Positions 25,278-48,935 of a stretch of 64,000 nucleotides of DNA are shown here, piece after piece. Every line of letters begins with the position of its first letter. Position 1 is the first letter of the stretch. A program made the position numbers and the translations under genes. The notes under the pieces were generated by a model. The model did no database searches and was not told where the DNA came from. It saw nothing but the letters and a program-made list of their open reading frames with translations. This DNA is from Chloroflexota bacterium. Lineage in GTDB: Bacteria; Chloroflexota; Dormibacteria; CF-121. The stretch is taken from the NCBI GenBank assembly GCA_034666565.1, contig JAXDLN010000091.1, positions 3,968 to 67,967 on the forward strand, read 5' to 3'.

Positions 25278-25310
25278 CGTCGGATTGTACGGACTCGATC
25301 TCACCTCGAT

Positions 25311-25339
25311 TTGACGGGACCCCAGGCATTCGCTAGAGT
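25311..25339 (+). promoter_or_regulatory. Sigma70-type promoter for the SBP56 operon
   Basis: TTGACG-N17-TAGAGT. A GACTA-N12-TAGTC inverted repeat follows in the leader. Confidence 0.6.
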
Positions 25340-25406
25340 GGCCCCAACACGCGTTCCCGACTATTTGGATCTCATTAGTCAACAACTCGGCTTGGAGGGA
25401 AGCGAG

Positions 25407-26789
25407 ATGGCCACCTTATTACGGGCGGATCCGACGTTTTATGCCTCACCGCGGCTGGCAGCGCAGGCGCCGCCGGAAACCCTGGCCTACATGATCGTCG
25501 TCAACCCCGGCGACGGCCCGGACGGCCTCGCCACCTTGGACGTCGACAAGAAATCGAAAACCTACGGCACCGTGCTCAACACGCTGACCACGACCCATGC
25601 CGGCGACGAGCTCCACCATTTCGGGTGGAACGCCTGCAGCTCCTCGCTCTGCCCCTATGCCGCGCATCCTCACGTTGAACGCCGCTACCTGCTGGCGCCC
25701 GGCATTCGATCATCGCGCATCTACGTCATCGACACCAAGCCGGATCCGCGCGCCCCGCACATCGTCAAGACCATCGAGCCGGAGGAAATCGCCAACCGCG
25801 CCGGCTACAGCCGCCCGCACACCAGTCACTGCGGACCCGATGGTATCTACGTCAGCGCGCTGGGCTCACCCACCGGCGATGGTCCGGGCGGCATCTTCAT
25901 CGTCGATCACGACACCTTCGAGGTCCGCGGGCGCTGGGAGCTCGATCGCGGCCCGCAGTATCTCGCCTACGACTTCTGGTGGCACCTCGGCTACGACACC
26001 ATGATCACCAGCGAGTGGGGCACGCCCAAGATGATCGAGGATGGGGTCAATCCCGAGATCCTGCTCAAAGGCGGCTACGGCCACCAGTTGCACATCTGGG
26101 ATCTGCCGAAGCGCCGTCACAGGCAGGTCATCGACCTGGGCGCCGACCAGCAGATGGTGCTCGAGCTGCGGCCGGCCCACGATCCATCCAAGGCGTTCGG
26201 CTTCGTTGGCGTGGTCACGAGCCTCAAAGACCTGAGCGCTTCGGTCTGGGCGTGGCACCTCGACGGCAACACCTGGAAGGCGCGCAAGGTGATCGAGATC
26301 CCGGCTGAGCCCGCTGATCCCGAGGTCCTTCCGCCACTCCTGAAGGGCTTCAAGGCCGTCCCGCCCCTGGTCAGCGACATCAACCTCTCGCTCGACGACC
26401 GCTTCCTCTACGTCTCCGCATGGGGAACCGGTGAGTTTCTGCAGTACGACGTCTCCGATCCATTCAATCCCAAGAAGACCGGGTCGGTGCACCTCGGCGG
26501 CATCGTGCGCAAGGCCGCGCATCCGACCTCCGGGGCGCTCAACGGCGGTCCGCAGATGGTCGAGGTCAGCCGCGACGGCAAGCGGGTCTATGTGTCGAAC
26601 GGGCTCTACAAAGCCTGGGACGACCAGTTCTATCCCGACGGCATCAAGGGATGGGTGGCCAAGCTCGACGTCGGCGAGAACGGCGGGATGACGCTCGACC
26701 GCAGCTTCTTCGTCCAGTCGGAGCAGCGCTTCCACCAGGTGCACCTGGAGGGCGGCGATGCCTCGTCCGATTCGTACTGCTTTGCCTGA
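25407..26789 (+). CDS. SBP56 / selenium-binding protein 1-like (methanethiol oxidase-like) protein (start ATG 25407)
   Basis: DELHHFGWNACSS, RPHTSHC, YDFWW, TSEWG, GGPQMVEVSRDGKR, WDDQFYP, EGGDASSD. GGAGG SD, no signal peptide. Confidence 0.92.
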   Translation: MATLLRADPTFYASPRLAAQAPPETLAYMIVVNPGDGPDGLATLDVDKKSKTYGTVLNTLTTTHAGDELHHFGWNACSSSLCPYAAHPHVERRYLLAPGIRSSRIYVIDTKPDPRAPHIVKTIEPEEIANRAGYSRPHTSHCGPDGIYVSALGSPTGDGPGGIFIVDHDTFEVRGRWELDRGPQYLAYDFWWHLGYDTMITSEWGTPKMIEDGVNPEILLKGGYGHQLHIWDLPKRRHRQVIDLGADQQMVLELRPAHDPSKAFGFVGVVTSLKDLSASVWAWHLDGNTWKARKVIEIPAEPADPEVLPPLLKGFKAVPPLVSDINLSLDDRFLYVSAWGTGEFLQYDVSDPFNPKKTGSVHLGGIVRKAAHPTSGALNGGPQMVEVSRDGKRVYVSNGLYKAWDDQFYPDGIKGWVAKLDVGENGGMTLDRSFFVQSEQRFHQVHLEGGDASSDSYCFA

Positions 26790-26792
26790 CGC

Positions 26793-27437
26793 ATGACCGC
26801 CTGGTGGCCGTGGGATGTCCTGATCATTCTCGGGGCATACCACGGCCTCAACCCGGGGATGGGTTGGCTCTTTGCCGTGGCGCGGGGCCTACAGGAACGA
26901 CGACGCTCTGCCGTATGGGAATCGTTTCTGCCGATTGCCCTCGGGCATGAGGCGGCGATCGCGATCATCGTCGTCCTCGTGGTGGTGGCCCAATTCCTGA
27001 TTGCGCCCCAGGTGCTGCGCATCGTGGGCGCGGTCGCGCTCTTCTCCTTTGCCCTCTATCGCCTCTGGCGCAAACGCGCGCATCCGCGCGGGTTCGGGAT
27101 GCGGATTGGCGCCCGCGGTCTCTTCGGCTGGTCCTTCTTGATGTCCTCCGCTCATGGCGCCGGTTTGATGCTGGTGCCGATCCTCCTGAAGCTGTCAACC
27201 ACCGGCGGCGGCAGCCAGGACATGACGTTGATCGCATCGGTATCGTCGTTTTCCCCGTGGCAAGGACTCGCGGCCGCGACCTTGCACACCGCGGCCCTCC
27301 TGATCGTGATGTCACTGATTGCGATCGTCGTCTATGAGCGGGTCGGCGTCGGCTTCCTGCACCGCGCCTGGTTGAACGTCGACCTGATCTGGACGGTGAC
27401 GCTGCTGTTCGCGGGCGTCATCACGCTTTTCAGCTAA
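26793..27437 (+). CDS. Multi-pass membrane protein with His motifs, co-transcribed with SBP56
   Basis: About 6 TM helices, with GAYHGLNPGMGW, LGHEAA, SSAHGAG and LHT. 3 nt after the SBP56 stop. Confidence 0.85.
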   Translation: MTAWWPWDVLIILGAYHGLNPGMGWLFAVARGLQERRRSAVWESFLPIALGHEAAIAIIVVLVVVAQFLIAPQVLRIVGAVALFSFALYRLWRKRAHPRGFGMRIGARGLFGWSFLMSSAHGAGLMLVPILLKLSTTGGGSQDMTLIASVSSFSPWQGLAAATLHTAALLIVMSLIAIVVYERVGVGFLHRAWLNVDLIWTVTLLFAGVITLFS

Positions 27438-27445
27438 CCGATTCT

Positions 27446-27480
27446 CCCTCCCCCCATCGCGGGGGAGGGTTGAGGTAGGA
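27446..27480 (+). repeat. Short palindromic repeat, copy 1 (intergenic)
   Basis: CCCTCCCCC-CATCGC-GGGGGAGGG-TTGAGGTAGGA. Confidence 0.75.
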
Positions 27481-27496
27481 CTTCCGTTACGCTGTC

Positions 27497-27988
27497 GTGC
27501 GAGTGCGCCCGCTTGGGAATATCGATCGCTCCTCATGGCTGGTGCTGGCGGGCGCTGCGACGCTGGCGGTTGTCGGCATCGGCGCGACATTCGTGGTGCG
27601 GAACACCTGGCCGGCCGCCGATACCGTGACACCGACCGGTGTGGTCGCCACCTACGTTCGGGCAGTCCAGACCGGCGACGCCGCTCGGGCCTGGCTTTAC
27701 CTGACCCACGACGCCACCCAGACTCCTCCCGGCGAGCCGCCCCGGCCGGTCCTATCGCAGGCTGACTTTCGCAACCAGGTCCAGTCCTCCCGGCAGCCGA
27801 CCAGCCCGCGGGTGCGAATCCTGAGTGTCAGCCAATCGGTCGACACGGCGACCGTCACGCTGGAGGTCAGCCACGCGTCGGGCGATCCGCTGACCGGCGC
27901 GAGCACCCAGCAGGTGGCGCTCTCCCTCGTCCGCGTTGGAGTCGGCTGGCAGATCGCGTCAGATCCTTTCCCCTGGCAGTTCCAGTGA
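27497..27988 (+). CDS. Membrane-anchored hypothetical protein (NTF2-like extracellular domain possible)
   Basis: N-terminal TM helix, TPTGVVATYVRAVQTGD..RAW.YL, and a LVRVG.GWQI terminal strand. Confidence 0.7.
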   Translation: MRVRPLGNIDRSSWLVLAGAATLAVVGIGATFVVRNTWPAADTVTPTGVVATYVRAVQTGDAARAWLYLTHDATQTPPGEPPRPVLSQADFRNQVQSSRQPTSPRVRILSVSQSVDTATVTLEVSHASGDPLTGASTQQVALSLVRVGVGWQIASDPFPWQFQ

Positions 27989-27989
27989 G

Positions 27990-29576
27990 ATGATCCAGCG
28001 CCGCCTCTACATCTATATTGTCGCCGCCGCCAGCTTCGCGATGGTGCTGATCGGCTTGATCAACCTCGGCTCGACCGCGATCAATCAATTCCTCAACACG
28101 ACGCCGCCCTACACCAATGTCCGGGATGCCTATGCCGGCTTCGGCGCGGTGATCCTCGTGGGCCTCCCGGTCTGGGGCATCCATTGGTGGCTCGCCCAGC
28201 GGTTTGCCGCGCGAACGGTCGACGAGCGTGCGTCGGCGATCCGCCGGCTCTACCTCTATGTCGTGTTGGCCGCGACCGGCATCGCGCTGGCCGTCTATCT
28301 CCGCCGCCTGATCGAGGATGCCACCGGCGTCCTGCTCGGTAGCTCGAGCGACGGCGCCTCGATCACGCGGGCACTGTGGGCGGTTCTGGTGCTCGCCGCC
28401 TTCTGGATTTATCACTTCCGAACCGCGAGTCTCGACCGGAGCCGGGTCGGCGAGTCCGGCGTGTCCGCCACCCTCCGCCGCTGGTACGCCTACGGCCTGC
28501 TCTTTCTCGGCCTGGCGTTCCTCCTATTCGGGGCGCGCAACCTGCTGCAGCAAATCTGGGTCCTGCTGGTCGACCGCGGCCAGGTGATCGCTCCCGGAGG
28601 GCTGGTCCCGACCGCGCTGGGAACGATGCTCACCGGACTCCTGATCTGGGGCTTCCATTCGCAATGGACCGCTGGGCCACCAATCGCTGAGGATGACCAG
28701 CGCTCGACCCTGCGCGCGGTACAGCGCTTCCTGGCCTTGACCGGTTGCGTGGCGCTCGCCCTCTTTGGCGCCAGCCAACTCCTCTATTACATCCTGGCGC
28801 GCCTGCTGGGGATCGAGCATCCCGGCGGGGTTAGCACCAATATCCTCGTCGCGCTGGCCAGCCCGGTTGCCACCGTGATCGTCTTCGGCCTGGCCTGGCT
28901 ATGGATTCAGCGACAGCTCGCCACCGATGCCGGCGCGACCGAAGCCACTCGTCAGGCCGGGGTCCGCCATTTGTACACACACCTGGTCGCCTTCCTCGCG
29001 CTGGTTACGCTCGCCATCGGGGCGGCCGGCCTACTCTGGACCTTCTCTGACCAGATCCTCAATGCACTTCTCGCCCACCCCTTAAACGACTGGCGCGACA
29101 GGGTCAGCCTGTTCGTCACCCTGGTCCTGGTGGGCGCCCCCATGTGGTTGACCCACTGGCGGCAATCCCCCGAGCTCGTCGAGCGCTACACCCTCAGCCG
29201 CCGCCTCTACCTCTACGCCACGCTGTTGGGCAGCGTCCTCGCGGTGTTGATCAGCGGCGCGATCTTCGTCTACCGCCTGCTGGCGCTGGTCCTCGGAACC
29301 AGCGACGCCGCCAGCGGGGCGCCCGTCATCGACATGGGCCGGGCGCTGTCGGTCATCCTCGTGGCAGCCGCCATCGGCCTCTACCACTGGCGCGTCTTAC
29401 GGTCCGACGGAGCAGCTCGCCCCACAGTGGCTCCGGTGCCGGCGGTCCCCTCCCCTATCCACGGGGGAGGGCAAGGTGGGGGCATGGTCGTTACGATTAC
29501 GGGCGCGACCGAACAACAAGTCCGGCAGGCACTATCGAAGCTACCGGATGGCGCGAACTACACGATTCAGCGGTAA
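27990..29576 (+). CDS. DUF5671-like multi-pass membrane protein (start ATG 27990)
   Basis: Repeated units RRLYIY/RRLYLY/RRWYAY/RHLYTH/RRLYLY followed by TM pairs ending in W..HW. Confidence 0.8.
   Translation: MIQRRLYIYIVAAASFAMVLIGLINLGSTAINQFLNTTPPYTNVRDAYAGFGAVILVGLPVWGIHWWLAQRFAARTVDERASAIRRLYLYVVLAATGIALAVYLRRLIEDATGVLLGSSSDGASITRALWAVLVLAAFWIYHFRTASLDRSRVGESGVSATLRRWYAYGLLFLGLAFLLFGARNLLQQIWVLLVDRGQVIAPGGLVPTALGTMLTGLLIWGFHSQWTAGPPIAEDDQRSTLRAVQRFLALTGCVALALFGASQLLYYILARLLGIEHPGGVSTNILVALASPVATVIVFGLAWLWIQRQLATDAGATEATRQAGVRHLYTHLVAFLALVTLAIGAAGLLWTFSDQILNALLAHPLNDWRDRVSLFVTLVLVGAPMWLTHWRQSPELVERYTLSRRLYLYATLLGSVLAVLISGAIFVYRLLALVLGTSDAASGAPVIDMGRALSVILVAAAIGLYHWRVLRSDGAARPTVAPVPAVPSPIHGGGQGGGMVVTITGATEQQVRQALSKLPDGANYTIQR
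29447..29482 (+). repeat. Short palindromic repeat, copy 2 (in-frame in the DUF5671-like gene)
   Basis: CCCCTCCCCT-ATCCAC-GGGGGAGGG-CAAGGTGGGGG, encoding PSPIHGGGQGGG. Confidence 0.75.
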
Positions 29577-29655
29577 CCCCCTTCGTTTGTAGGGGTGCCG
29601 TCAGGTATCGACGCAGGACGAACCCCGATCGAGCGGGCGGTAACGTGGGGCTGCC

Positions 29656-30168
29656 GTGAGACTGACTGCGGTCGGCGCCCAGAGGTCGACGGATGAGAAC
29701 GTGCTGGGGTCGGCGACGTCTCACAACCCGATCGACGTTTTACTCGTTGAAGACAACTTCTACGACATCGACTTGACGACCCACGCGCTGAAGGACGCGA
29801 TTCCTCCGGACCGCATCAAGGCCGTCCACGATGGCGCCGAGGCGCTGGATTTCATTTTCTGCACCGGTGACTACGCCAATCGCGACCCGCGGCAGCAGCC
29901 GAAACTGATCCTCCTGGACCTCCAGCTCCCAAAGGTGGACGGGCTCGAAGTGCTGCGGCGCATCCGGGCGGATCCGCTCACGGAAGACATCCCCGTAGTC
30001 ATCTTCACCCACTCCAGGGAGGACCGCAACATCATCCAGGGCTACAAGCTCGGCGCCAACAGTTTCCTGGTCAAGCGCCACGACTTCGATGAATTCATGA
30101 AGGGGATCCAGGCGCTCGGGATCTATTGGCTGGTCATGAACAGGCCGCCCGTGAGCGGCAAGGGTTAG
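29656..30168 (+). CDS. Single-domain response regulator (Rcp1/CheY-like)
   Basis: LLVEDN, GAEALDF, PKLILLDLQLPKVDGLEVL, YKLGANSFLVK. Confidence 0.9.
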   Translation: MRLTAVGAQRSTDENVLGSATSHNPIDVLLVEDNFYDIDLTTHALKDAIPPDRIKAVHDGAEALDFIFCTGDYANRDPRQQPKLILLDLQLPKVDGLEVLRRIRADPLTEDIPVVIFTHSREDRNIIQGYKLGANSFLVKRHDFDEFMKGIQALGIYWLVMNRPPVSGKG

Positions 30169-32025
30169 ATGGCAGGCGCCGCCAGCCGCCTCCCCGGCAA
30201 CCTGGATCAAGCGATTTTCCGCATCGCCGCGCTGGCATTTTGCTCGCTGAGCTCGCTTGCCTTGCTCAGCGATTACATCGGCTCCGACCTTCAGGCCGAC
30301 TACCTGGAGGACTGGGCGATCACCGGGCTTGCCTATTGTGGCGCTGCCGCCAGCTGGTATCTGGCACGGCGGCGCGCCCCGGTCATGCTCATCCTTCCGT
30401 TGGCCTTGCTCGGGATCGTCCTCATCAGCTTGGAAGAGTCCTTCACCGGCGGCACCCACTCGCACCTGTACGTCCTCTATGTGGTGCCGGTGATCTTCAC
30501 CGCAGCTCTCCTCGAGCTGCGGCTGACCGCCCTCGTCATCGTCGTGGCGCTGGCCGCCGCCGCATTGCCGCTGCTCGGTGGCTGGAATGATTTCTATGCG
30601 CGGGCGCTCCTGGTGCTGGGCGGTGTGATGGCGCTGTCGGCCTACGTCGAAACGCATCTGCTCGGTACCGCCGTCAAAGAGAAAGCCGCCGCCGACCATC
30701 AAGCCCTGTACGACGACCTGACCGGCTTACCGAACCGCGCCCTCTTCTATCGCCGGGTCCGCGAACTGATCGCGTCCGCTGGCGGCGAGCGGGCGGCGGT
30801 GCTCCTCATGGACCTTGATCACTTCAAGGACATCAACGACACCCTTGGCCACGACCAGGGCGACCTCGTCCTCAAAGAGGTGAGCAGCCGACTGCAGCGA
30901 GCCGTGGGCCCGCCCGACACCGTCGCCCGACTCGGCGGCGATGAGTTTGGCATCCTGTTTCCCCATCTGCCGCACGGCGCGGGCCGGCATGCCGCCGAGC
31001 AGGTGCTCAAGGTGCTCACACCCCCCGTCGTCGTCAAGGGCCTCGACATCGATCTGCAGGCCAGCGTTGGAGTCGCCCTCTTCCCCGAGCACGGGCAGGA
31101 CGTCGATTCGTTGGTTCAGAGAGCTGATGTGGCGATGTACCAGGCGAAGGCGGGCGCCGGCAGTGATTACAAGGTCTACACGCCGGACCGCGACCCCCAC
31201 TCAACCGAGCGGTTGGAACTGACGGGAGAGCTACGGCGGGCGATCAAAGAGGGCGAGCTCGTTCTCCACTACCAACCAAAGATCGGCCTGCAGAGCCGCA
31301 AGGTGATGGGTGCAGAGGCCCTGGTCCGCTGGCGGCATCCAAAGCGCGGACTTCTCTCCCCGGAAACCTTCCTCCCGCTGGCCGAGCGCAGTGGGCTGAT
31401 GAAGGCGCTGACCGCTGAAGTGCTCCAGATGGCCCTCCGGCAATGCCGGACCTGGCAGGGCGCCGGCATCGAGCTCACGATGGCGGTCAACGTGGCGGCT
31501 TCGGACCTGCTTGACCTGCAGTTCCCGGAGGAAGTGGAATCGCAGCTGACCCATCGGGGCCTGGCGGCGTCAGCGCTCGAACTGGAGATCACCGAGAGCA
31601 CCATCCTGGCGGACCCAGCGCGGGCACAGGCTGTGCTGACTCGACTCCACGCGATGGGCGTGCGGGTCGCCGTCGACGACTTCGGGACCGGCTACTCCTC
31701 GTTGATGTATCTGAAAGAGCTGCCGGTCGACGCCGTCAAGATTGACCGATCCTTCGTCCGCGACATGGCGACCAAGAGTGACGATGAGATCATCGTCCGG
31801 GCCATCATCGACCTCGCCCGCAACCTCAACCTCCAGGTGGTGGCGGAAGGCGTCGAAAACGAAGCCACCTGGAACCGATTGAGCGCACTCGGGTGCGATC
31901 TGGCGCAGGGCTACTACCTCAGCCCACCGCTCGCGGAGAAGGAACTCGTCCTCTGGCTCAATCACTGGTCGGAACTGACCGCCACTGTGCCCAGCCCGAA
32001 TAAGAAACTCACCCTCGTCGCCTGA
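30169..32025 (+). CDS. Membrane-bound GGDEF-EAL (diguanylate cyclase/phosphodiesterase)
   Basis: About 5 TM helices, then DDLTGLPNR, DLDHFKDINDTLGH, RLGGDEF, EALVRW, DDFGTGYSSL, KIDRSF, AEGVE. Confidence 0.93.
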   Translation: MAGAASRLPGNLDQAIFRIAALAFCSLSSLALLSDYIGSDLQADYLEDWAITGLAYCGAAASWYLARRRAPVMLILPLALLGIVLISLEESFTGGTHSHLYVLYVVPVIFTAALLELRLTALVIVVALAAAALPLLGGWNDFYARALLVLGGVMALSAYVETHLLGTAVKEKAAADHQALYDDLTGLPNRALFYRRVRELIASAGGERAAVLLMDLDHFKDINDTLGHDQGDLVLKEVSSRLQRAVGPPDTVARLGGDEFGILFPHLPHGAGRHAAEQVLKVLTPPVVVKGLDIDLQASVGVALFPEHGQDVDSLVQRADVAMYQAKAGAGSDYKVYTPDRDPHSTERLELTGELRRAIKEGELVLHYQPKIGLQSRKVMGAEALVRWRHPKRGLLSPETFLPLAERSGLMKALTAEVLQMALRQCRTWQGAGIELTMAVNVAASDLLDLQFPEEVESQLTHRGLAASALELEITESTILADPARAQAVLTRLHAMGVRVAVDDFGTGYSSLMYLKELPVDAVKIDRSFVRDMATKSDDEIIVRAIIDLARNLNLQVVAEGVENEATWNRLSALGCDLAQGYYLSPPLAEKELVLWLNHWSELTATVPSPNKKLTLVA

Positions 32026-32029
32026 TGAT

Positions 32030-32058
32030 CCCTCCCCCTTTGGGTGAGCGGCTGGGTG
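32030..32058 (+). repeat. Degenerate palindromic repeat, copy 3 (intergenic)
   Basis: CCCTCCCCC-TTT-GGGTGAGCG-GCTGGGTG; the right arm is decayed. Confidence 0.45.
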
Positions 32059-32121
32059 ACGAAGGAAGGTGAAACCCGAAGGCGTGCTCCGGTGGCAAGC
32101 TCAAGCAGGACCGAAAACGTA

Positions 32122-32150
32122 TTGACAAACGAACAAACGTTCGCTAAACT
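32122..32150 (+). promoter_or_regulatory. Sigma70 promoter containing a LexA (SOS) box in the spacer
   Basis: TTGACA (32122-32127)-N17-TAAACT (32145-32150), with CGAAC-AAAC-GTTCG at 32130-32143. Confidence 0.85.
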
Positions 32151-32161
32151 AATACAAAATT

Positions 32162-33439
32162 GTGGTAGTCGAAGAGCCGATCGGCCCGTTGCATCCCGCC
32201 GTCGAAGCGGTCCTCCACGCCATCGACCAGTTGCGCCATCGCCCCAGGACCTATCGCGAGCCCGATGAGCTGACCGCCGAGCTGCGGGCACTCCGCCGCG
32301 GCCAGGATCTGCTTGAACTGGAGTTCGCCACGACCGCCGCCCAGTTCAGCAGGACGCAGGAGTACGAAGAGCAAGGGTCCGTCAGCCCCATCGATTGGAT
32401 CCGCCACCACTGCAAGATGTCCAGCTCAGCCGTGTGGGGCAGCGTGGCTGTCGGCGAGCACCTCGCCGACCTCCCGCGCAGCGTCGAGGCCGTCGAGAGC
32501 GGCGAGATCGGCTACGCGCACCTGACCCTGATGGCCAGGACGGCCGACGCCCTGCAGGGATCCCCCACGGCCGCGCCCTTCGAGGAGACGGAGCTGCTCG
32601 AGAAAGCCCGTGAGTTCAGCGTTGGTCGCCTCTGGCACTTCTGTCATCACCTTCGGCACGCGCTGGACCCCGAGGGTTTCACGGCCGAGCAGAAGCGGGC
32701 CACCGAGGAACGCAGTCTCAAGCTCAGCCCCTGCGAAGACGGTACGCTGTTGCTCGAGGGTTGGCTGGATTCCGTCGGCGGAGCGGCGCTGCGAAGTGCG
32801 CTCGAGCCGTTGGCGCTTCCCCACGGTGATCACGACGAGCGACCCCGCGAACGCCGAAACGCTGACGCGCTGGTGGAGGTCTTCACCCACGTGCAGGACA
32901 CCGGCTCACTGCCGCAGCGGCCTCATCTGCAGGTCACGGCCTCGCTGGACACGCTGCGTGGGCTGGCCGGGTCGCCCGCCGGTGATCTGGAGTACTCGCT
33001 CCCCGTCTCGGCCGAGACCGTGCAGCGGCTGGCGTGCGACGGTACGATCACGCGCGTGGTCCTAGCGCCGGAGTCCGTCGTGATCGACGTCGGTCGTGCT
33101 AGACGCGTGGTCGCGGGCCCGACCCGCCGCGCACTCGCAGCCCGCGACGGTCACTGCCGCTGGCCGCACTGCGATCGGCCGGCATCCTGGAGCGACGCCC
33201 ACCACGTCATCCATTGGAGTAAGGGCGGCGAAACGGACCTCTCGAACATGGTCCTCTTGTGTCATCGACACCACTGGATGGCGCACGAGGGCGGCTGGCA
33301 GCTGGTGCAAACCGCGGAGGGCGAGGTCCTGACCGTGCCGCCGCGCCCGCCGGGACTGGCCCGGGCTGCGGACGTTGACGATCCCATTGAGGCCGCTCGC
33401 CGCTTCACGCAGCAGCTCAGCCCCGCCCGCGCCCCCTAA
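32162..33439 (+). CDS. DUF222-domain HNH endonuclease (13E12/REP13E12 repeat-like family)
   Basis: DUF222-like GWLD..GGAAL..AL, R..DALVE and RLACD, plus HNH ARDGHCRWPHCD...DAHHVIHWSKGGETDLSNMVLLCHRHH. Confidence 0.9.
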   Translation: MVVEEPIGPLHPAVEAVLHAIDQLRHRPRTYREPDELTAELRALRRGQDLLELEFATTAAQFSRTQEYEEQGSVSPIDWIRHHCKMSSSAVWGSVAVGEHLADLPRSVEAVESGEIGYAHLTLMARTADALQGSPTAAPFEETELLEKAREFSVGRLWHFCHHLRHALDPEGFTAEQKRATEERSLKLSPCEDGTLLLEGWLDSVGGAALRSALEPLALPHGDHDERPRERRNADALVEVFTHVQDTGSLPQRPHLQVTASLDTLRGLAGSPAGDLEYSLPVSAETVQRLACDGTITRVVLAPESVVIDVGRARRVVAGPTRRALAARDGHCRWPHCDRPASWSDAHHVIHWSKGGETDLSNMVLLCHRHHWMAHEGGWQLVQTAEGEVLTVPPRPPGLARAADVDDPIEAARRFTQQLSPARAP

Positions 33440-36400
33440 GCTCTCGAGGCGACCGTCCCCTCGTGGGCGTTCTCGATGCGGGCGACATCGGCCTTCGGCG
33501 CGACTCTCCAGAATCGATGCAGCGCCGCATGCCAGTCATCGAGGATCGCTCGGGCCGCGGCCGACCCGGTGTAGACGGCGTGCTGCTCGATCAGCCCGCG
33601 CAACCGTAGGACCTGCTCGGCCAGGAGCTGGTGCTCGCCGCTGAGCCGGTGGGCATCCACTAGCTCGGCGTTCACCATCGCCGGCAATCCGATTCCCGTG
33701 TCGTAGACGAAGACTTCCCCACCCGTCATGCCGGCGCCGAGGTTGTGTCCCACAGGGCCGAGCACCACCAGGGTGCCTCCGGTCATGTATTCGGCGCAAT
33801 GCTCCCCCACGCCCTCGACCACGGCCGAGGCGCCGCTATTGCGTACCGCGAAACGCTCGCCGGCTTTTCCCGCACAAAACAGTTCCCCTCCGGTGGCCCC
33901 GTAGAGGACGGTGTTGCCGAGCAGGTAGGGATCGCCGGCATCATCGGCCGGCGGGCGCAGAATGATCCGTCCGCCACCCATCCCCTTCCCGACGTAATCG
34001 TTCGCCTCTCCGATCAGGACGAACTCGATCCCCTCGGTAAGGAAGGCCCCGAAACTCTGGCCGGCGGCGCCGGTAAATGTGAATGACGCCGATCCAGCCG
34101 GGGCCGCCGGCCCACATTCCCTGGCCAGCGCACCACCCAACCGCGCCCCGACCGAGCGGTCGCTATTTTGGATCGGGTAGCTGGCGCGCACATCGGCGCC
34201 GGTCAGGACCGCGGTCAGGCCGTCCAGGCAGACCCGATCGCCGAGCGCCGACGACGGCCGCTGCAGCGGAATCGACCCGACGAATCGTCGTGGCTCCGAG
34301 CCCTCGTCGCTCAGCAATGGTGAAAGGTCCATGCGGTCGGCTCGCGGATCCCCCGTGATGCGTTGCGACAGCAAGTCCGTCCGGCCGATCGCATCGTCGA
34401 GTCGTCGCAGACCGAGTCCCGCCAGGATGTGACGGATCTCCTCGGCGACGTGCGTCAGATACGCCTCGAGCATCTCCGGCGTCCCGGCAAACTTGGCCCG
34501 CAATTCCGGACGCTGGGTCGCGATGCCCACCGGGCAGGTGTCGAGGTGGCAGGTGCGCACCATGATGCACCCCTCGGCCAGGAGCGCCGCGGTGCCAAAG
34601 CTGTACTCGTCGGCACCGAGCAGCGCAGCGATGACGACGTCGCGACCGGACTTGATGCCGCCGTCGACGCGCAGTCGAACCCGATCGCGCAAATCGTTGA
34701 TCCGGAGCGTCTGCTGAGTTTCCGCCAGGCCGATTTCCCACGGCATCCCGGCGTTCTTGATCGACGACAGCGGGCTGGCGCCCGTGCCGCCATCCATGCC
34801 GGCGATGTGCACCACGTCCGCCAGGCCCTTGACCACGCCGGCGGCGATCGTCCCGACGCCGGCTTCGGAGACCAGCTTGACGGAGACCGCCGCCAGTGGA
34901 TTGACCTGCTTGAGGTCGTAGATGAGCTGCGCGAGATCCTCGATCGAATAGATGTCGTGGTGGGGCGGCGGCGAGATCAGGGCAATCCCTTGCTGTGTGT
35001 GCCGGAGCCGGGCGATCTCCTCCGTTGCCTTGTGACCGGGCAGCTGGCCGCCCTCACCGGGCTTCGACCCCTGTGCCATCTTGATCTGCAACTCGTCGGC
35101 GAACACACAGTACTCGGGCGTGACGCCGAATCGCCCCGACGCCACCTGCTTGATCCGCGAGTTGCGGTCGATCGGCAGTCCCCTGGTGCGATAGCGGGCC
35201 GGGTCCTCGCCACCCTCTCCGGTGTTGCTCTTGCCGCCCAGCCGGTTCATCGCGATCGCGATCGTCTCGTGCGCCTCGGCGGCGATGGAGCCGTGCGACA
35301 TGGCGCCGGTCGAGAACCGCCGCACGATGGCGACCGCGGGCTCGACCTCATTGAGCGGGACGGGTGGGCCGGCCGGCCGCAGCGCCAGCAGATCCCTCGG
35401 ATAGGTCGGGGGACGGTCATTGACCAGGCGGGCAAAGCGCGCATACGATGCAGAGCCCTTCCCATCCGGCCCAGTCGCGACTGCGCGTTGCAGCGCGTGC
35501 GCCGCCGCCATCTCTTTCAGAGCAATTTCCCCTCCCCCTCTGGGGGAGGGCAGGGTGGGGGCGGCAATGGCCACCGCCACTTCTTCTCCGGGCACCGCGT
35601 CGTGCAGCGCGTCGACGACATCGGGGTTGGTCGCGTGATATTCGGTGCCCTGCTTGTGATGCTTGAAGAAGCCGGGGCTCTTCAGGGCCGGCGTCGCCGC
35701 GGCCCACCCCTCGGCGTGCAGCGCGAGCACCTGCTCACCGAGGTCGTCGAAGGTCGTGCCACCGACCGGCGAGGGCGTGCCGGCAAAACCGAAGTCGACC
35801 ACGCTGGCATCGAGCCCGATGATTTCGAAGATCTGCGCCCCCTGGTAGCCATCGAGCGTCGAGATGCCCATCTTGGCGAGCACCTTGAGGGTGCCATCCT
35901 CGAGCGCCGCGACGTAGTGCTCCTGCGCGCTACGCCCATCGGCCGCCTCACCTTTGAGATGGCCCGCCGACGCCAGCGCCCTGATCGACGTCAGGCCGAG
36001 CCGGGGACAGATTGCCTGTGCGCCGTACCCGAGCAAGCACACAACGTGATGTACCTCGCGGGCCTCGTCGGTCTCGACCACCAGGCTGGTCAGCCCGCGC
36101 AGGCCGCGGCGCATCAGGTGGTGGTGCACGGTTCCCACCGCGAGCAGCGCCGGGATCGGCGCGCGCTCGGGGCCGGCCTCGCGATCGGACACGATCAGGA
36201 TCGAGGCGCCGAAGCGAACAGCGCGCTCGGCGTCCTGGGCCAACCGCTCGCAGGCGGCGCGCAACCCACCGGGTCCGTCGGCGACCGGGAAGGTGGCGTC
36301 GAGATCGCTGGACGCGAACGGGGTGCCCATGCCGCGGACGGCCTCGAGTCCCGATGGATAGAGGACGAATGAGTCCAGCTGGACCAGGCGGGCAGCGGCC

Positions 36401-38040
36401 GGTCTGCTCGAGAGCAGCGGCGCCGGCGGCCCGAGATAGCTGCGCAGCGACATCACGAGTCGCTCGCGCAGATGGTCGATCGGCGGGTTGGTCACCTGCG
36501 CGAAGCGCTGCTTGAAATAGCTGTAGAGGAGTCGCGGCGGCCGAGCCAGCACCGAGAGCGCGGTGTCGTCGCCCATCGAGAAAATCGGCTCCTTGCCCTG
36601 GGTTGCCATCGGTCGCAGCACGTAGGTGAACTCTTCCTTCGTGTATCCGAAGGTGGTCTGGCGCGCCACGAGGTCGGGCATGACCTCCTCCGTGGGCTCC
36701 CCAGGATCGAGCGACGTCAGGTTGTCATCCAGCCACCGACCGTACGGCTGCTCGTCCGCGAGCCGGCGTTTGATGCTGTCGTTCTCCTCCAGCCCACCGC
36801 GCTCGGGATCGACGCAGATCATCTCGCCAGGCCCGAGCTTGCCGCGCCGCACGCTGCCGTGCCCGTCGACGTCGACCGCGCCGGCTTCCGAGGCGCAGGC
36901 GATCAAGCCGTCCTCGCACACCGCGTAGCGCAGCGGCCGCAGTCCGTTGCGGTCGAGTACGGCGCCGACCCGCGTCCCGTCGGTGAAGACCAGTCCGGCA
37001 GGCCCATCCCAGGGCTCCATCAGGCAGGCGTGGTAGCGATAGAAATCACGGACCGCCGGGTCGACGTCGAAGCCCTCCCAGGCTTCCGGTACCAGCATCG
37101 CCAGCGACTGCCGGATGTCGCGGCCCCCCTGGACCAGCAACTCGAGTGCGTTGTCGAGCATCGCCGAGTCGGAGCCGGCTTCGTCGATCACGGGCACCAG
37201 CAGGTCCTCGTCAGCCCCGTTCCGGGCACCGAGACGGCCCTCGCGGGCGCGCATCCGGTTGACGTTGCCCTGGATAGTGTTGATCTCACCGTTGTGGCAG
37301 AGCATGCGGAATGGCTGAGCCCGCTCCCACGAGGGCGCTGTGTTCGTGCTGTAGCGCTGATGGAAGATGGCGAAGGGAGCGACGAATCGCGGGTCGCGGA
37401 GGTCGGGGTAGAACGGCGCCAGCTGGTCGGCGGCGCACATCGCCTTGTAGGTCAGGGTGCGAAACGACATCGACGCGACGTACGCGTGCAATCCCGCGGC
37501 CCGGACGGCACGCTCGACGCGCTTGCGCGCCCGGTAACATCGGGCCTCGGCCTCGGCGCTCGACACCGAACCCCTGGCGGCGATGATGGCCTGCTCGATC
37601 ACCGGTGCCGTAGTTCGGGCCAGGTCACCGAGCGCATCGGGATCGACCGGGACCGGGCGCCAGTCGATCAGGTCGAGCTGCTCGGCGCGACAGGCCTCAT
37701 CGAAGAGCCGGCGGGTGAGCCGCCGCCGCTGATACCCGTCGGCCGCCGGCGCGTTGGAGAGGAAGACGACGGCGACCCCGAGCTTGACGGCCGGCTCGAC
37801 GTTGATGGCGGCGCGCTGCATCCACTCGCGCAGAAAGGATTGCGGGATGGACAGCAGGAGACCGGCGCCATCGCCCGAACGATGGTCCGCGGCCACCGCT
37901 CCTCGATGACGGACACGATGCAGCGCTGCGAGGGCGGCGTCGACAATACCTCGACTGGCTCGCCCTCCAGCGTCAGCGACGAAACCGATCCCGCAGGCGT
38001 CGTGCTCGTAGCGAGAGTCGTACAAGCCTGCGTGTCGCAA
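33436..38040 (-). CDS. gltB: Glutamate synthase large subunit
   Basis: EHDACGIGF (N-terminal nucleophile Cys), HQRYSTNT, HNGEINT, EPWDGPA, SNTGEGG, KMAQGSKPGEGGQLPG, CIMVRTCHLDTC and a GXGXG C-terminal domain. Confidence 0.97.
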   Translation of the reverse strand: MRHAGLYDSRYEHDACGIGFVADAGGRASRGIVDAALAALHRVRHRGAVAADHRSGDGAGLLLSIPQSFLREWMQRAAINVEPAVKLGVAVVFLSNAPAADGYQRRRLTRRLFDEACRAEQLDLIDWRPVPVDPDALGDLARTTAPVIEQAIIAARGSVSSAEAEARCYRARKRVERAVRAAGLHAYVASMSFRTLTYKAMCAADQLAPFYPDLRDPRFVAPFAIFHQRYSTNTAPSWERAQPFRMLCHNGEINTIQGNVNRMRAREGRLGARNGADEDLLVPVIDEAGSDSAMLDNALELLVQGGRDIRQSLAMLVPEAWEGFDVDPAVRDFYRYHACLMEPWDGPAGLVFTDGTRVGAVLDRNGLRPLRYAVCEDGLIACASEAGAVDVDGHGSVRRGKLGPGEMICVDPERGGLEENDSIKRRLADEQPYGRWLDDNLTSLDPGEPTEEVMPDLVARQTTFGYTKEEFTYVLRPMATQGKEPIFSMGDDTALSVLARPPRLLYSYFKQRFAQVTNPPIDHLRERLVMSLRSYLGPPAPLLSSRPAAARLVQLDSFVLYPSGLEAVRGMGTPFASSDLDATFPVADGPGGLRAACERLAQDAERAVRFGASILIVSDREAGPERAPIPALLAVGTVHHHLMRRGLRGLTSLVVETDEAREVHHVVCLLGYGAQAICPRLGLTSIRALASAGHLKGEAADGRSAQEHYVAALEDGTLKVLAKMGISTLDGYQGAQIFEIIGLDASVVDFGFAGTPSPVGGTTFDDLGEQVLALHAEGWAAATPALKSPGFFKHHKQGTEYHATNPDVVDALHDAVPGEEVAVAIAAPTLPSPRGGGEIALKEMAAAHALQRAVATGPDGKGSASYARFARLVNDRPPTYPRDLLALRPAGPPVPLNEVEPAVAIVRRFSTGAMSHGSIAAEAHETIAIAMNRLGGKSNTGEGGEDPARYRTRGLPIDRNSRIKQVASGRFGVTPEYCVFADELQIKMAQGSKPGEGGQLPGHKATEEIARLRHTQQGIALISPPPHHDIYSIEDLAQLIYDLKQVNPLAAVSVKLVSEAGVGTIAAGVVKGLADVVHIAGMDGGTGASPLSSIKNAGMPWEIGLAETQQTLRINDLRDRVRLRVDGGIKSGRDVVIAALLGADEYSFGTAALLAEGCIMVRTCHLDTCPVGIATQRPELRAKFAGTPEMLEAYLTHVAEEIRHILAGLGLRRLDDAIGRTDLLSQRITGDPRADRMDLSPLLSDEGSEPRRFVGSIPLQRPSSALGDRVCLDGLTAVLTGADVRASYPIQNSDRSVGARLGGALARECGPAAPAGSASFTFTGAAGQSFGAFLTEGIEFVLIGEANDYVGKGMGGGRIILRPPADDAGDPYLLGNTVLYGATGGELFCAGKAGERFAVRNSGASAVVEGVGEHCAEYMTGGTLVVLGPVGHNLGAGMTGGEVFVYDTGIGLPAMVNAELVDAHRLSGEHQLLAEQVLRLRGLIEQHAVYTGSAAARAILDDWHAALHRFWRVAPKADVARIENAHEGTVASRA
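35529..35561 (+). repeat. Short palindromic repeat, copy 4 (in-frame inside gltB, opposite strand)
   Basis: CCCCTCCCCC-TCT-GGGGGAGGG-CAGGGTGGGGG, read in GltB as APTLPSPRGGGE. Confidence 0.78.
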
Positions 38041-38134
38041 GATTCAGCTTCTGACGCTATCGGTTACCGCCGCAGCAAACCACGGACGATTGCACCAAAA
38101 GGATGGCGCACCGTCGTACCCTCCACACAAGCAC

Positions 38135-39331
38135 TCAGGGGGCCTGCTCGCCCCCGTAAAGCACACGCTGCGGCATGCGGTGCAGGCTGACCACGCCATC
38201 GTCTGTCACACGTACCAGCTCGCCGACCTGAACGCCCGCTCGCTGATCGATCGTCACGACATTCGGTTGGATCACCAGCGTCATGTTCCGCTCGAACACG
38301 AAGTCCGGTACCGGCCCGTGGCTGCTCCCGGGAGTTCGGAGGATCGGCGGAAGGTAGCCGCCACCATAGCCGTGGACGAGGTCGTCGCAGGTGGTGAAGC
38401 CCTGGGTCTCGATCAGCGATGCCGCATCGACGATCGTCGACGCGGACACCCCGGGTGCAATGGTGCGCGCGACCTCATGAAATGCCTGCCAGGCCACGTC
38501 GTGGAGTCGCCGATAGGTCTCGGTCAGCTCGGCTTCGACGGTCACCGTCCTGAGAACCTGGCCCGAGTATGCGGCATAGGCCGCGCTCAACTCGAGGATG
38601 ATCGCGTCGCCGGCTTGCAGTGGACGATCGGTGAGGTCCTGCTGCGGCACGATACGGTCGGGATTGGCCATCGGCGTCGAGCTCAAGTAGAGAAAGTGCG
38701 GTTGGCCACCGCCGCGGATCGCGGCAGCAGCCGCCTCCGCCTGCAGTTCGAGCTCGGTGGCGCCGGGCACGGCGGCGCGAACCAGCGCCGCCAACGCCTG
38801 GTCGGTGATCGCCGCGGCGCGCGTCATCCACTCGAGCTCTTCCTCACTCTTGACCAGCCGTAGCCGGAGAAAATCCGCCGTTGCATCGACAAAGGTCCGG
38901 TCGCCAAGGCGACCGATCAGCCGCTGCTGCTCGCCGTACGGCACCGACCCCACCAGCCCCACCCGCAGGGTGGGCGGCATAGCAGCGAGCTCATCCGCCA
39001 CCGCGTCGACCGACCGCGTGCCGCCCCACCGGACTTCGGCACGGGCGACACGCCGCGCATGCGGCACGTGGTTGAAATATTGGACGAACAGCATCGGGTC
39101 CCCGCCGGGCTTCCACACAACGTAGGCGTCCTGGTGGCCGAGGAATCCCGTCAGGAAATGGACCTGTGCCTGCCCCTGCCTCGCATTGGCCGAGGTGCCG
39201 AAGACGACGAGCACATCGAGACGCTGATCGGCGCAGAGCTGGTCGACGGCGCGGCGCCGTCGACCCCACTCGGCGTCGGAGAACCCCCCACCCCGACCCT
39301 CCCCCGCAAGGGGGGAGGGAGCATCAGCCAA
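38135..39331 (-). CDS. M24 (creatinase/aminopeptidase P fold) protein with non-canonical metal site
   Basis: Creatinase-N-like region plus pita-bread domain (LVKSEEEL, GDAIILELS, YSGQVLRT, VHGYG, IQPN). Confidence 0.85.
   Translation of the reverse strand: MADAPSPLAGEGRGGGFSDAEWGRRRRAVDQLCADQRLDVLVVFGTSANARQGQAQVHFLTGFLGHQDAYVVWKPGGDPMLFVQYFNHVPHARRVARAEVRWGGTRSVDAVADELAAMPPTLRVGLVGSVPYGEQQRLIGRLGDRTFVDATADFLRLRLVKSEEELEWMTRAAAITDQALAALVRAAVPGATELELQAEAAAAAIRGGGQPHFLYLSSTPMANPDRIVPQQDLTDRPLQAGDAIILELSAAYAAYSGQVLRTVTVEAELTETYRRLHDVAWQAFHEVARTIAPGVSASTIVDAASLIETQGFTTCDDLVHGYGGGYLPPILRTPGSSHGPVPDFVFERNMTLVIQPNVVTIDQRAGVQVGELVRVTDDGVVSLHRMPQRVLYGGEQAP
39284..39319 (-). repeat. Short palindromic repeat, copy 5 (in-frame at the M24 N-terminus)
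   Basis: Minus strand CCCTCCCCC-CTTGC-GGGGGAGGG-TCGGGGTGGGGGG, encoding PSPLAGEGRGGG. Confidence 0.78.
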
Positions 39332-48850: not shown

Positions 48851-48935
48851 TGATCGCTTCCGAAGCGGAGCGGCGCTGCTTCCACGGTCTGCGCCAGCTT
48901 CGGCATCGCCGCCCCTCCCCCTACTGTACGGCCTT

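Follow-up and report, generated by a model that had tools for sequence, protein, structure and literature searches.

How does one short palindrome come to stand between genes at some sites and to lie in frame within them at others? The question is raised by a stretch of 64,000 nucleotides (the window; contig JAXDLN010000091.1, positions 3,968 to 67,967) from the genome of an uncultured soil bacterium of the Dormibacteria (Chloroflexota). An original prediction, drawn from the letters alone, described five copies of a hairpin within 12 kb of this window and read them as a REP- or MITE-like family that adds peptide segments to proteins in the manner of Rickettsia palindromic elements (RPEs). That reading is supported. 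The hairpin belongs to a repeat of 33–36 bases, present in ~160 copies in the genome, in which a further G-rich block is part of the design. The original prediction missed what follows from this block: by structure, the repeat is a member, or a G/C-rich variant, of the BoxC/PIT/TMECO family, with a predicted triplex. Overall, we consider it probable that this is a non-autonomous repeat of BoxC/PIT/TMECO type that multiplies and is tolerated at gene ends and, in frame, inside genes.

A three-block repeat found throughout the genus

The repeat opens with CCCTCCCCC, followed by a loop of 3–6 nt, GGGGGAGGG, another 2–3 nt and finally GGGTGGGGG(C); its consensus is (a/t-rich)TTy-CCCTCCCCC-(TCT or GCTCGC)-GGGGGAGGG-(CA or TCA)-GGGTGGGGG-C. 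The stem blocks are conserved and the loops vary, that of the hairpin being TCT or GCTCGC. Genome-wide the loop classes (3,2) and (6,2) dominate, the second loop measuring 2–3 nt and mostly 2, and this gives two dominant length classes 3 nt apart. Including the conserved final C, these measure 33 and 36 nt, multiples of three, and would thus preserve a reading frame. The hairpin folds with an energy of −20 to −23 kcal/mol. Read off the sequence, all six frames of the repeat are free of stop codons, which agrees with the claim that it can be read in both orientations.

Several searches agree on abundance. A search of the 3.64 Mb assembly for the strict palindrome CCCTCCCC-N0-16-GGGGAGGG gives 99 copies. 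A fuzzy three-block pattern has 169 matches compared with none in an order-5 Markov simulation, and an nhmmer profile has 168 at E≤0.01 compared with none in the reversed genome. The genome thus holds ~100 strict and ~165 loose copies, above what runs of G and C would yield. Some copies are identical, among them 19 exact 33-mers and five exact 36-mers. All 30 genomes of the genus carry the repeat, with 4–109 copies each (control, 0), so that the proposed family, with conserved stems and variable loops, is borne out both in this genome and beyond it. No Rfam model exists for the repeat: a search of window positions 27–40 kb in E-value mode gave no family matches. A search for the literal repeat sequence found no match in the text of ~8.4 million papers.

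The third block and the BoxC/PIT/TMECO family

The family came to notice as BoxC in the 1990s and was described anew in 2000, under the name PIT elements, by Maher and co-workers, according to the history outlined by Holder et al. (2015, NAR, PMC4666352). The same authors define TMECO by the consensus CCCTCNCCC N3-6 GGGNGAGGG N3 GGGNGAGGG, which forms a class II purine-motif intrastrand triplex. They report it from more than 260 genomes, with no mobility genes nearby and with a tie to local genome instability; in E. coli it is "always intergenic" (PMC4666352).

The repeat described here has the same plan: a 9-nt C-block, a loop of 3–6 nt, a 9-nt G-block complementary to the first block, a short loop again and a last 9-nt G-block in mirror image. 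The two also share conserved stems with variable loops, tens to hundreds of copies, a very wide taxonomic spread, the lack of a nearby transposase and an association with local rearrangement. The hairpin of C-block, loop and G-block is present as 99 perfect palindromes, and GGGTGGGGG, the third block, is GGGGGAGGG in exact mirror image, T standing opposite A. In the 51 copies whose blocks are all exact, block 3 mirrors block 2 perfectly, and 9/9 triads are compatible with the G.G:C and T/A.A:T types of the class II purine motif. There is also a variable triad at which all three blocks covary: of 253 copies, 222 have (C,G,G) there, 20 have (T,A,A/T) and ~11 are mixed. On the evidence of sequence, this pattern amounts to a compensatory change on all three strands when set beside the E. 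coli type.

Differences lie in detail. The blocks are CCCTCCCCC / GGGGGAGGG / GGGTGGGGG here and CCCTC(T/G)CCC / GGG(A/G)GAGGG / GGGTGAGGG in TMECO: where the latter has A in its third block the present repeat has G, and blocks 1 and 2 have changed to match. It is because of this three-strand change that the published TMECO pattern misses the copies in our genome. The second loop is mostly 2 nt (2–3) rather than 3. The most marked difference is placement: ~22% of copies are internal to genes and in frame, and others form protein C-termini, in contrast to the always intergenic location reported for E. coli.

The exact three-block pattern is not restricted to the Dormibacteria. It recurs in many phyla, in at least 120 stretches among the matches listed, with 1–149 copies per genome and with loops specific to each genome.

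Copies in the window and their host genes

The window holds four complete hairpin copies (27446, 29448, 35530 and, on the minus strand, 39297) and one degenerate copy (32030). This bears out the five predicted, two of them intergenic and three in open frames, and the peptides PSPIHGGGQGGG, PSPLAGEGRGGG and APTLPSPRGGGE read as claimed.

27446..27481, + strand: copy 1; the hairpin CCCTCCCCCC-ATCGC-GGGGGAGGG is perfect, block 3 degenerate (nhmmer, 27443-27470: E=0.031)
29448..29483, + strand: copy 2; all three blocks present; sense-frame reading PSPIHGGGQGGG
32030..32061, + strand: copy 3, degenerate; CCCTCCCCC-TTT-GGGTGAGCG-GCT-GGGTGACG (nhmmer weak, E=2.5)
35530..35562, + strand: copy 4; exact 33-nt consensus (nhmmer E=5e-9)
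39285..39319, − strand: copy 5 (hairpin at 39297); 36 nt (nhmmer E=2.7e-4)
27936..29576, + strand: host gene of copy 2; DUF5671-family membrane protein with four DUF5671 repeats (PF18920, E=3e-53)
33436..38040, − strand: host gene of copy 4, read antisense as APTLPSPRGGG; GltB, glutamate synthase large subunit
38135..39331, − strand: host gene of copy 5; M24 (creatinase/prolidase-type) peptidase, identity confirmed by Pfam

Predicted insert-spanning peptides are AIAAPTLPSPRGGGEIALK for GltB and ADAPSPLAGEGRGGGFSDAEWGR for the M24 peptidase. The two intergenic copies both lie just past stop codons: copy 1 is 8 nt beyond that of the open reading frame (ORF) 26793-27437, and copy 3 is 4 nt beyond that of a GGDEF-EAL gene (30169-32025). 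A lone C-block at 48913 is unrelated and was rejected as a copy.

The identities of the host genes agree with Pfam. For all three, the claim of a lineage-specific, RPE-like insertion holds because more distant orthologs in the genus are without the peptide. In GltB the insert is part of a variable linker (residues ~820-855), exactly where alignments to solved GltB structures break. Four orthologs (L014-L017) are without it. Six have the repeat in the same frame, as PTLPSP(R/A)GGGE, one of them (L013) with 1.5 copies; two (L005, L007) retain recognisable decayed copies; and in another (L003) only the right arm is left after an in-frame deletion of 24 nt. The linker is hypervariable altogether (window ~35480-35640, residues ~805-855): across L001-L017, 0 to ~45 residues separate two similar helices, DALHDAV...AHALQRAV, and in distant relatives that helix occurs just once.

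Copy 2 was predicted to form the C-terminus of the DUF5671 protein. The in-frame reading stands and the terminal position does not: the copy occupies a linker ahead of a conserved C-terminal mini-domain of ~30 aa ("ITGA..YTIQ"), and orthologs L163-L165, which lack the repeat, keep this mini-domain in the same ORF. The copy is therefore an internal linker insertion. In two further orthologs (L161, L162) it has decayed and the frame is still kept.

Copy 5 is read as PSPLAGEGRGGG immediately behind codon 4 of the M24 peptidase, and its C-block is 4 nt from the stop codon of an upstream hydrolase gene. The sole canonical in-frame start, TTG at 39331, is upstream of the repeat and overlaps the TGA of that gene. 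The insert is shared by three relatives and persists in decayed, in-frame form in a fourth; L156 (G016:C134), which is more distant, is without it. L156 also has no in-frame ATG, GTG or TTG start; a CTG ~14 nt past AAGGAG resembles one.

A fourth case is found in a relative, G012, whose ortholog of ORF 32162-33439 has 36 extra nucleotides containing the repeat, three codons before the stop; this copy is absent in the source genome.

The surroundings of copies 1 to 3 differ among relatives. A segment of 4–7 kb with the DUF5671, response-regulator and GGDEF-EAL genes (window ~25300-32100) is partly missing in G020:C187 and wholly missing in G016:C134. A repeat copy sits at the breakpoint in G016, which fits the reported tie between BoxC/PIT/TMECO repeats and rearrangement.

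Placement across the genome

Copies were called in frame where a codon log-odds model, iteratively trained on long ORFs, scored the same open frame best over 80 codons on both sides. By this measure 35 of 159 scorable copies (~22%, about one in five) are internal and in frame, neither strand being favoured (19 sense, 16 antisense). Between them they draw on five of the six frames, giving PSPSGGGQGGG (14 copies), APTLPSPRGGG (6), PHPALPQRGRE (6), PPPLGEGRVG (5) and PPPxPPPEGEG (4); none of the 35 uses the Trp-rich frame LPLWGRAGWG.

In ~26 of the 30 host ORFs scanned, the insert is either flanked to left and right by Pfam domains or spanned by one; DnaG is among the hosts. The insert occupies linkers in E2 acyltransferase and OdhA (lipoyl linkers), CarA, GT4, ABC-F, AroE, glycogen debranching enzyme and MutL, and loops within domains in LysE, QueG, Ddl, ApbE, M20, ArgH, an AMP-binding enzyme, the central loop of an MFS protein and DPP-IV. 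For ArgH, alignment to PDB 2e9f has a gap at the insert. We infer from conservation of the frame through decay that the inserts are probably translated.

Almost half of the other 124 copies (61) are within 25 nt past the stop codon of a coding-like ORF, and at 18 an ORF enters or crosses the repeat and stops soon after. Copies at 3′-ends have both orientations (64 vs 47), and no U-tract follows the repeat in either.

One junction, three outcomes

A histidine-kinase/response-regulator junction outside the window (C81:19703-21721; loci L280-L293) illustrates how differently the repeat is handled across species. In G022 and G005 it is absent and the genes meet in a bare overlapping stop/start, TGATG. 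In G015, G013, G024 and G020 it forms an N-terminal extension of the regulator, and in G008 and G001 it ends the kinase as a C-terminal tail, the overlap there being a new one, GTGA. In the source genome a deletion of ~17 nt beside the repeat removed both stop and start codons, leaving one fused ORF of 673 aa with the repeat peptide as linker. Both here and in GltB, different species have different loop subtypes at the same position, which suggests repeated insertion or conversion from other copies.

A single ORF of 750 aa elsewhere in the source genome (C67:26890-29139) joins luciferase-like monooxygenase and UbiA prenyltransferase domains with the repeat peptide precisely at the join, and is perhaps a second repeat-bridged gene fusion.

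What might spread the repeat

The original prediction saw no mobilising enzyme in the window and proposed a search for a RAYT or a DUF559-type nuclease. The genome as a whole has no PF01797 (RAYT) gene. The suggestion of DUF559 was apt for other phyla: at least 13 of 30 DUF559 genes there have inverted copies of the repeat on either side, no more than ~100 nt away, and the DUF559 ORF in such cassettes often ends inside the right-hand copy. Sphingosinicella terrae and Terricaulis provide examples of cassette loci. In the wider phylum, many of 30 DUF559 loci (from 151 genomes) are likewise bracketed, with varied triplex-type repeats. Recurrent neighbours at 120 cross-phylum repeat loci include one small meaningful cluster, which is DUF559 (3 loci); the large clusters were rejected as candidate drivers, being generic ABC or membrane families. 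In a Planctomycetota metagenome-assembled genome (MAG; G046, contig C1), ~150 copies occur mostly as inverted pairs ~48 nt apart with their third blocks facing. These empty inverted doublets have the geometry of the DUF559 cassette without its gene and look like cassette-less derivatives. A literature search on DUF559 gave no link to repeats.

DUF559 is listed in PMC3424549 with the homing endonuclease I-Bth0305I (PDB 3r3p) among nucleases of the Vsr fold (DUF559/EDxHD), and VsrA of Caulobacter is another such nuclease (PMC12907096). It is this fold that is encoded by the genes inside inverted repeat copies in other phyla. By analogy with homing enzymes, a break-and-copy process would explain the spread of the repeat, with the qualification that the source genome has no such cassette.

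The source genome does have one DUF559-like gene (C41:43144-43404), 35–39% identical to the cassette-borne ones. Strings of the type GCGCAAGAA...CTGGCCG lie just upstream of it and at its 3′-end, and these are not triplex repeats. With five DUF559 proteins as queries, tblastn against the source genome found this one gene only, and no remnants between repeat pairs.

A gene for a DUF222 protein with an HNH endonuclease domain (REP13E12-like; window 32162-33439, + strand) lies between degenerate copy 3 and the 3′-end of gltB. It was rejected as a driver: it has six paralogs, and a repeat is near only one.

Alternative explanations

One explanation would be chance: runs of G and C, given a genome of 65% GC, or else Gly/Pro-rich linkers that arose by convergence, with no DNA element at all. 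The sequence is indeed of low complexity, and the 9-mer GGGGGAGGG by itself is not over-represented (22 one-mismatch matches, ~36 expected). The composite motif, on the other hand, is absent from the Markov and reversed-genome controls compared with 99–169 occurrences observed, 19 of its 33-mers are identical, the DNA occurs within genes in five different frames and outside them as well, and the exact pattern recurs in many phyla. The controls refute this reading, and we give it practically no weight. A REP/REPIN family of the classical kind, moved by a RAYT (Y1 transposase), would share the short palindrome, the many copies and the placement at gene ends, and PF01797 genes are present in 6 of 15 other repeat-bearing genomes. 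GTAG/CGTC REPs are 20–40 bp palindromes lying mostly less than 20 bp from ORF 3′-ends, in convergent and tandem arrangements, and some are intragenic, often in DNA-repair and replication genes (Di Nocera et al. 2013, PMC3733652). The present repeat resembles these in being a short palindrome near gene 3′-ends and sometimes within genes; it differs in its third block, its higher intragenic share and the lack of a GTAG or CGTC tag (the criterion of PMC3733652) at the palindrome end, in consensus or flanks. PF01797 is missing not only from the source genome but from three copy-rich relatives (G012, G016 and G001; 71–109 copies) and from five repeat-bearing genomes of other phyla, and close repeat pairs in the source genome are all direct, with no inverted, REPIN-like doublets. 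Mobilisation by a RAYT is accordingly very improbable.

Two further explanations concern what is conserved. The tracts GGGGG-A-GGG-CA-GGG-T-GGGGG, read off the sequence, fit the G3+N1-7 x4 rule, and a G-quadruplex competing with the hairpin, rather than a triplex, could be the conserved and functional form; the circular dichroism spectra of TMECO do resemble those of parallel quadruplexes (PMC4666352). In the same study, however, nuclear magnetic resonance was done to exclude a quadruplex and a stable triplex was reported in vitro, and the covariation of blocks 2 and 3 (T/A and G/G) follows a mirror, triplex-type symmetry that a quadruplex does not require; we regard a conserved quadruplex as improbable. 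More serious is the possibility that the repeat is not selfish DNA but a selected cis-acting, REP-like 3′-end hairpin, either a terminator lacking a U-tract or a block to 3′ exonucleases, whose in-frame copies are rare accidents. The stability of the hairpin, the 61 of 124 non-internal copies close behind stop codons and the like placement of REPs (PMC3733652) speak for it. Yet 3′-end copies have both orientations, neither with a U-tract; 22% of copies are inside genes without orientation bias; the conserved third block has no terminator role; and PIT elements showed neither promoter nor terminator activity in E. coli, as that work is cited in PMC4666352. Such a role is doubtful as the whole explanation, and it can coexist with the one we prefer.

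Our preferred explanation remains that of a multiplying BoxC/PIT/TMECO-type repeat. The 9-nt C-block and its complementary G-block would form the hairpin, on which the mirror G-block could lie as a third strand. Copies would persist where they are harmless, mostly within ~25 nt past stop codons; those in genes would persist owing to the absence of stops in any frame and to the dominant lengths of 33 and 36 nt, each adding 11–12 Gly/Pro/Ser-rich residues to a loop, linker or terminus. Gain, decay and partial deletion are all seen among species of the genus. Our best guess for the spread is repair, triggered by a break or nick, that is copied from another repeat copy. In lineages with the cassette a DUF559-type nuclease would drive such copying; in this genus another activity may do so, or the driver may since have been lost.

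A number of observations weigh against this explanation. The length of 3n depends on where the ends of the repeat are placed, the dominant length class is not significantly enriched among in-frame copies (80% vs 71%), and in Ddl the repeat-like stretch stands in place of a loop about as long, so that nothing is added. The strict published TMECO pattern has no match in the source genome. Neither the source genome nor the three copy-rich relatives named above has a RAYT, no repeat lies within 1.5 kb of the sole DUF559-like gene, and four other genomes of the genus tested are without DUF559 altogether; as the MAGs of the genus are 70–95% complete, such absences are weak evidence. No target-site duplication was found at the 19 identical copies or at the filled site in G012, nor any clean pair of empty and filled sites, and transposition is thus unproven.

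A broader proposal would join the two sets of data: BoxC/triplex repeats would serve as ends or landing sites for bacteria-wide minimal mobile elements whose sole gene is a DUF559 (Vsr-like) nuclease, and the solo repeats of Dormibacteria would multiply and homogenise by copy-templated repair without a resident nuclease. We think this unlikely as it stands. If true, it would mean that the repeats land at stop/start junctions and in protein loops, and are a regular source of linkers, terminal extensions and fusions such as that of kinase and regulator.

Implications

The triplex-motif family itself is already known and widespread. What is new is the Dormibacteria variant, its high in-frame share in core enzymes, the variety of its accommodations at stop/start junctions, including a gene fusion, and its abundance in the absence of a cassette. 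BoxC/PIT/TMECO elements have been known for ~30 years without a function or a mode of spread. The question of a driver is now sharpened: cassettes are present in other phyla, yet this genus, with up to 109 copies per genome, has none in the five genomes tested.

The comparison with RPEs bears on what the repeat does to proteins. RPEs are ~100–150 bp long, AT-rich and confined to Rickettsia (Ogata et al. 2000, as summarised in PMC2229807). In that summary, as here, palindromes lie between genes and in frame in conserved protein genes, adding lineage-specific peptides without destroying the host protein. The present repeat differs from the elements summarised there in being 33–36 nt long, G/C-rich and found across phyla, and in adding 11–12 residues; the sequences are unrelated. 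It works like an RPE but is not one.

The repeat is read through in frame in ~30 housekeeping enzymes of the genus, and at one stop/start junction it has been accommodated in three ways, one of them a fused kinase–regulator. With this in-frame read-through and fusion, triplex repeats join the RPEs as remodellers of proteins. Filled, decayed and empty alleles occur naturally in the genus and could serve studies of how such inserts are tolerated, and gene callers and domain predictors will meet them across many soil MAGs.

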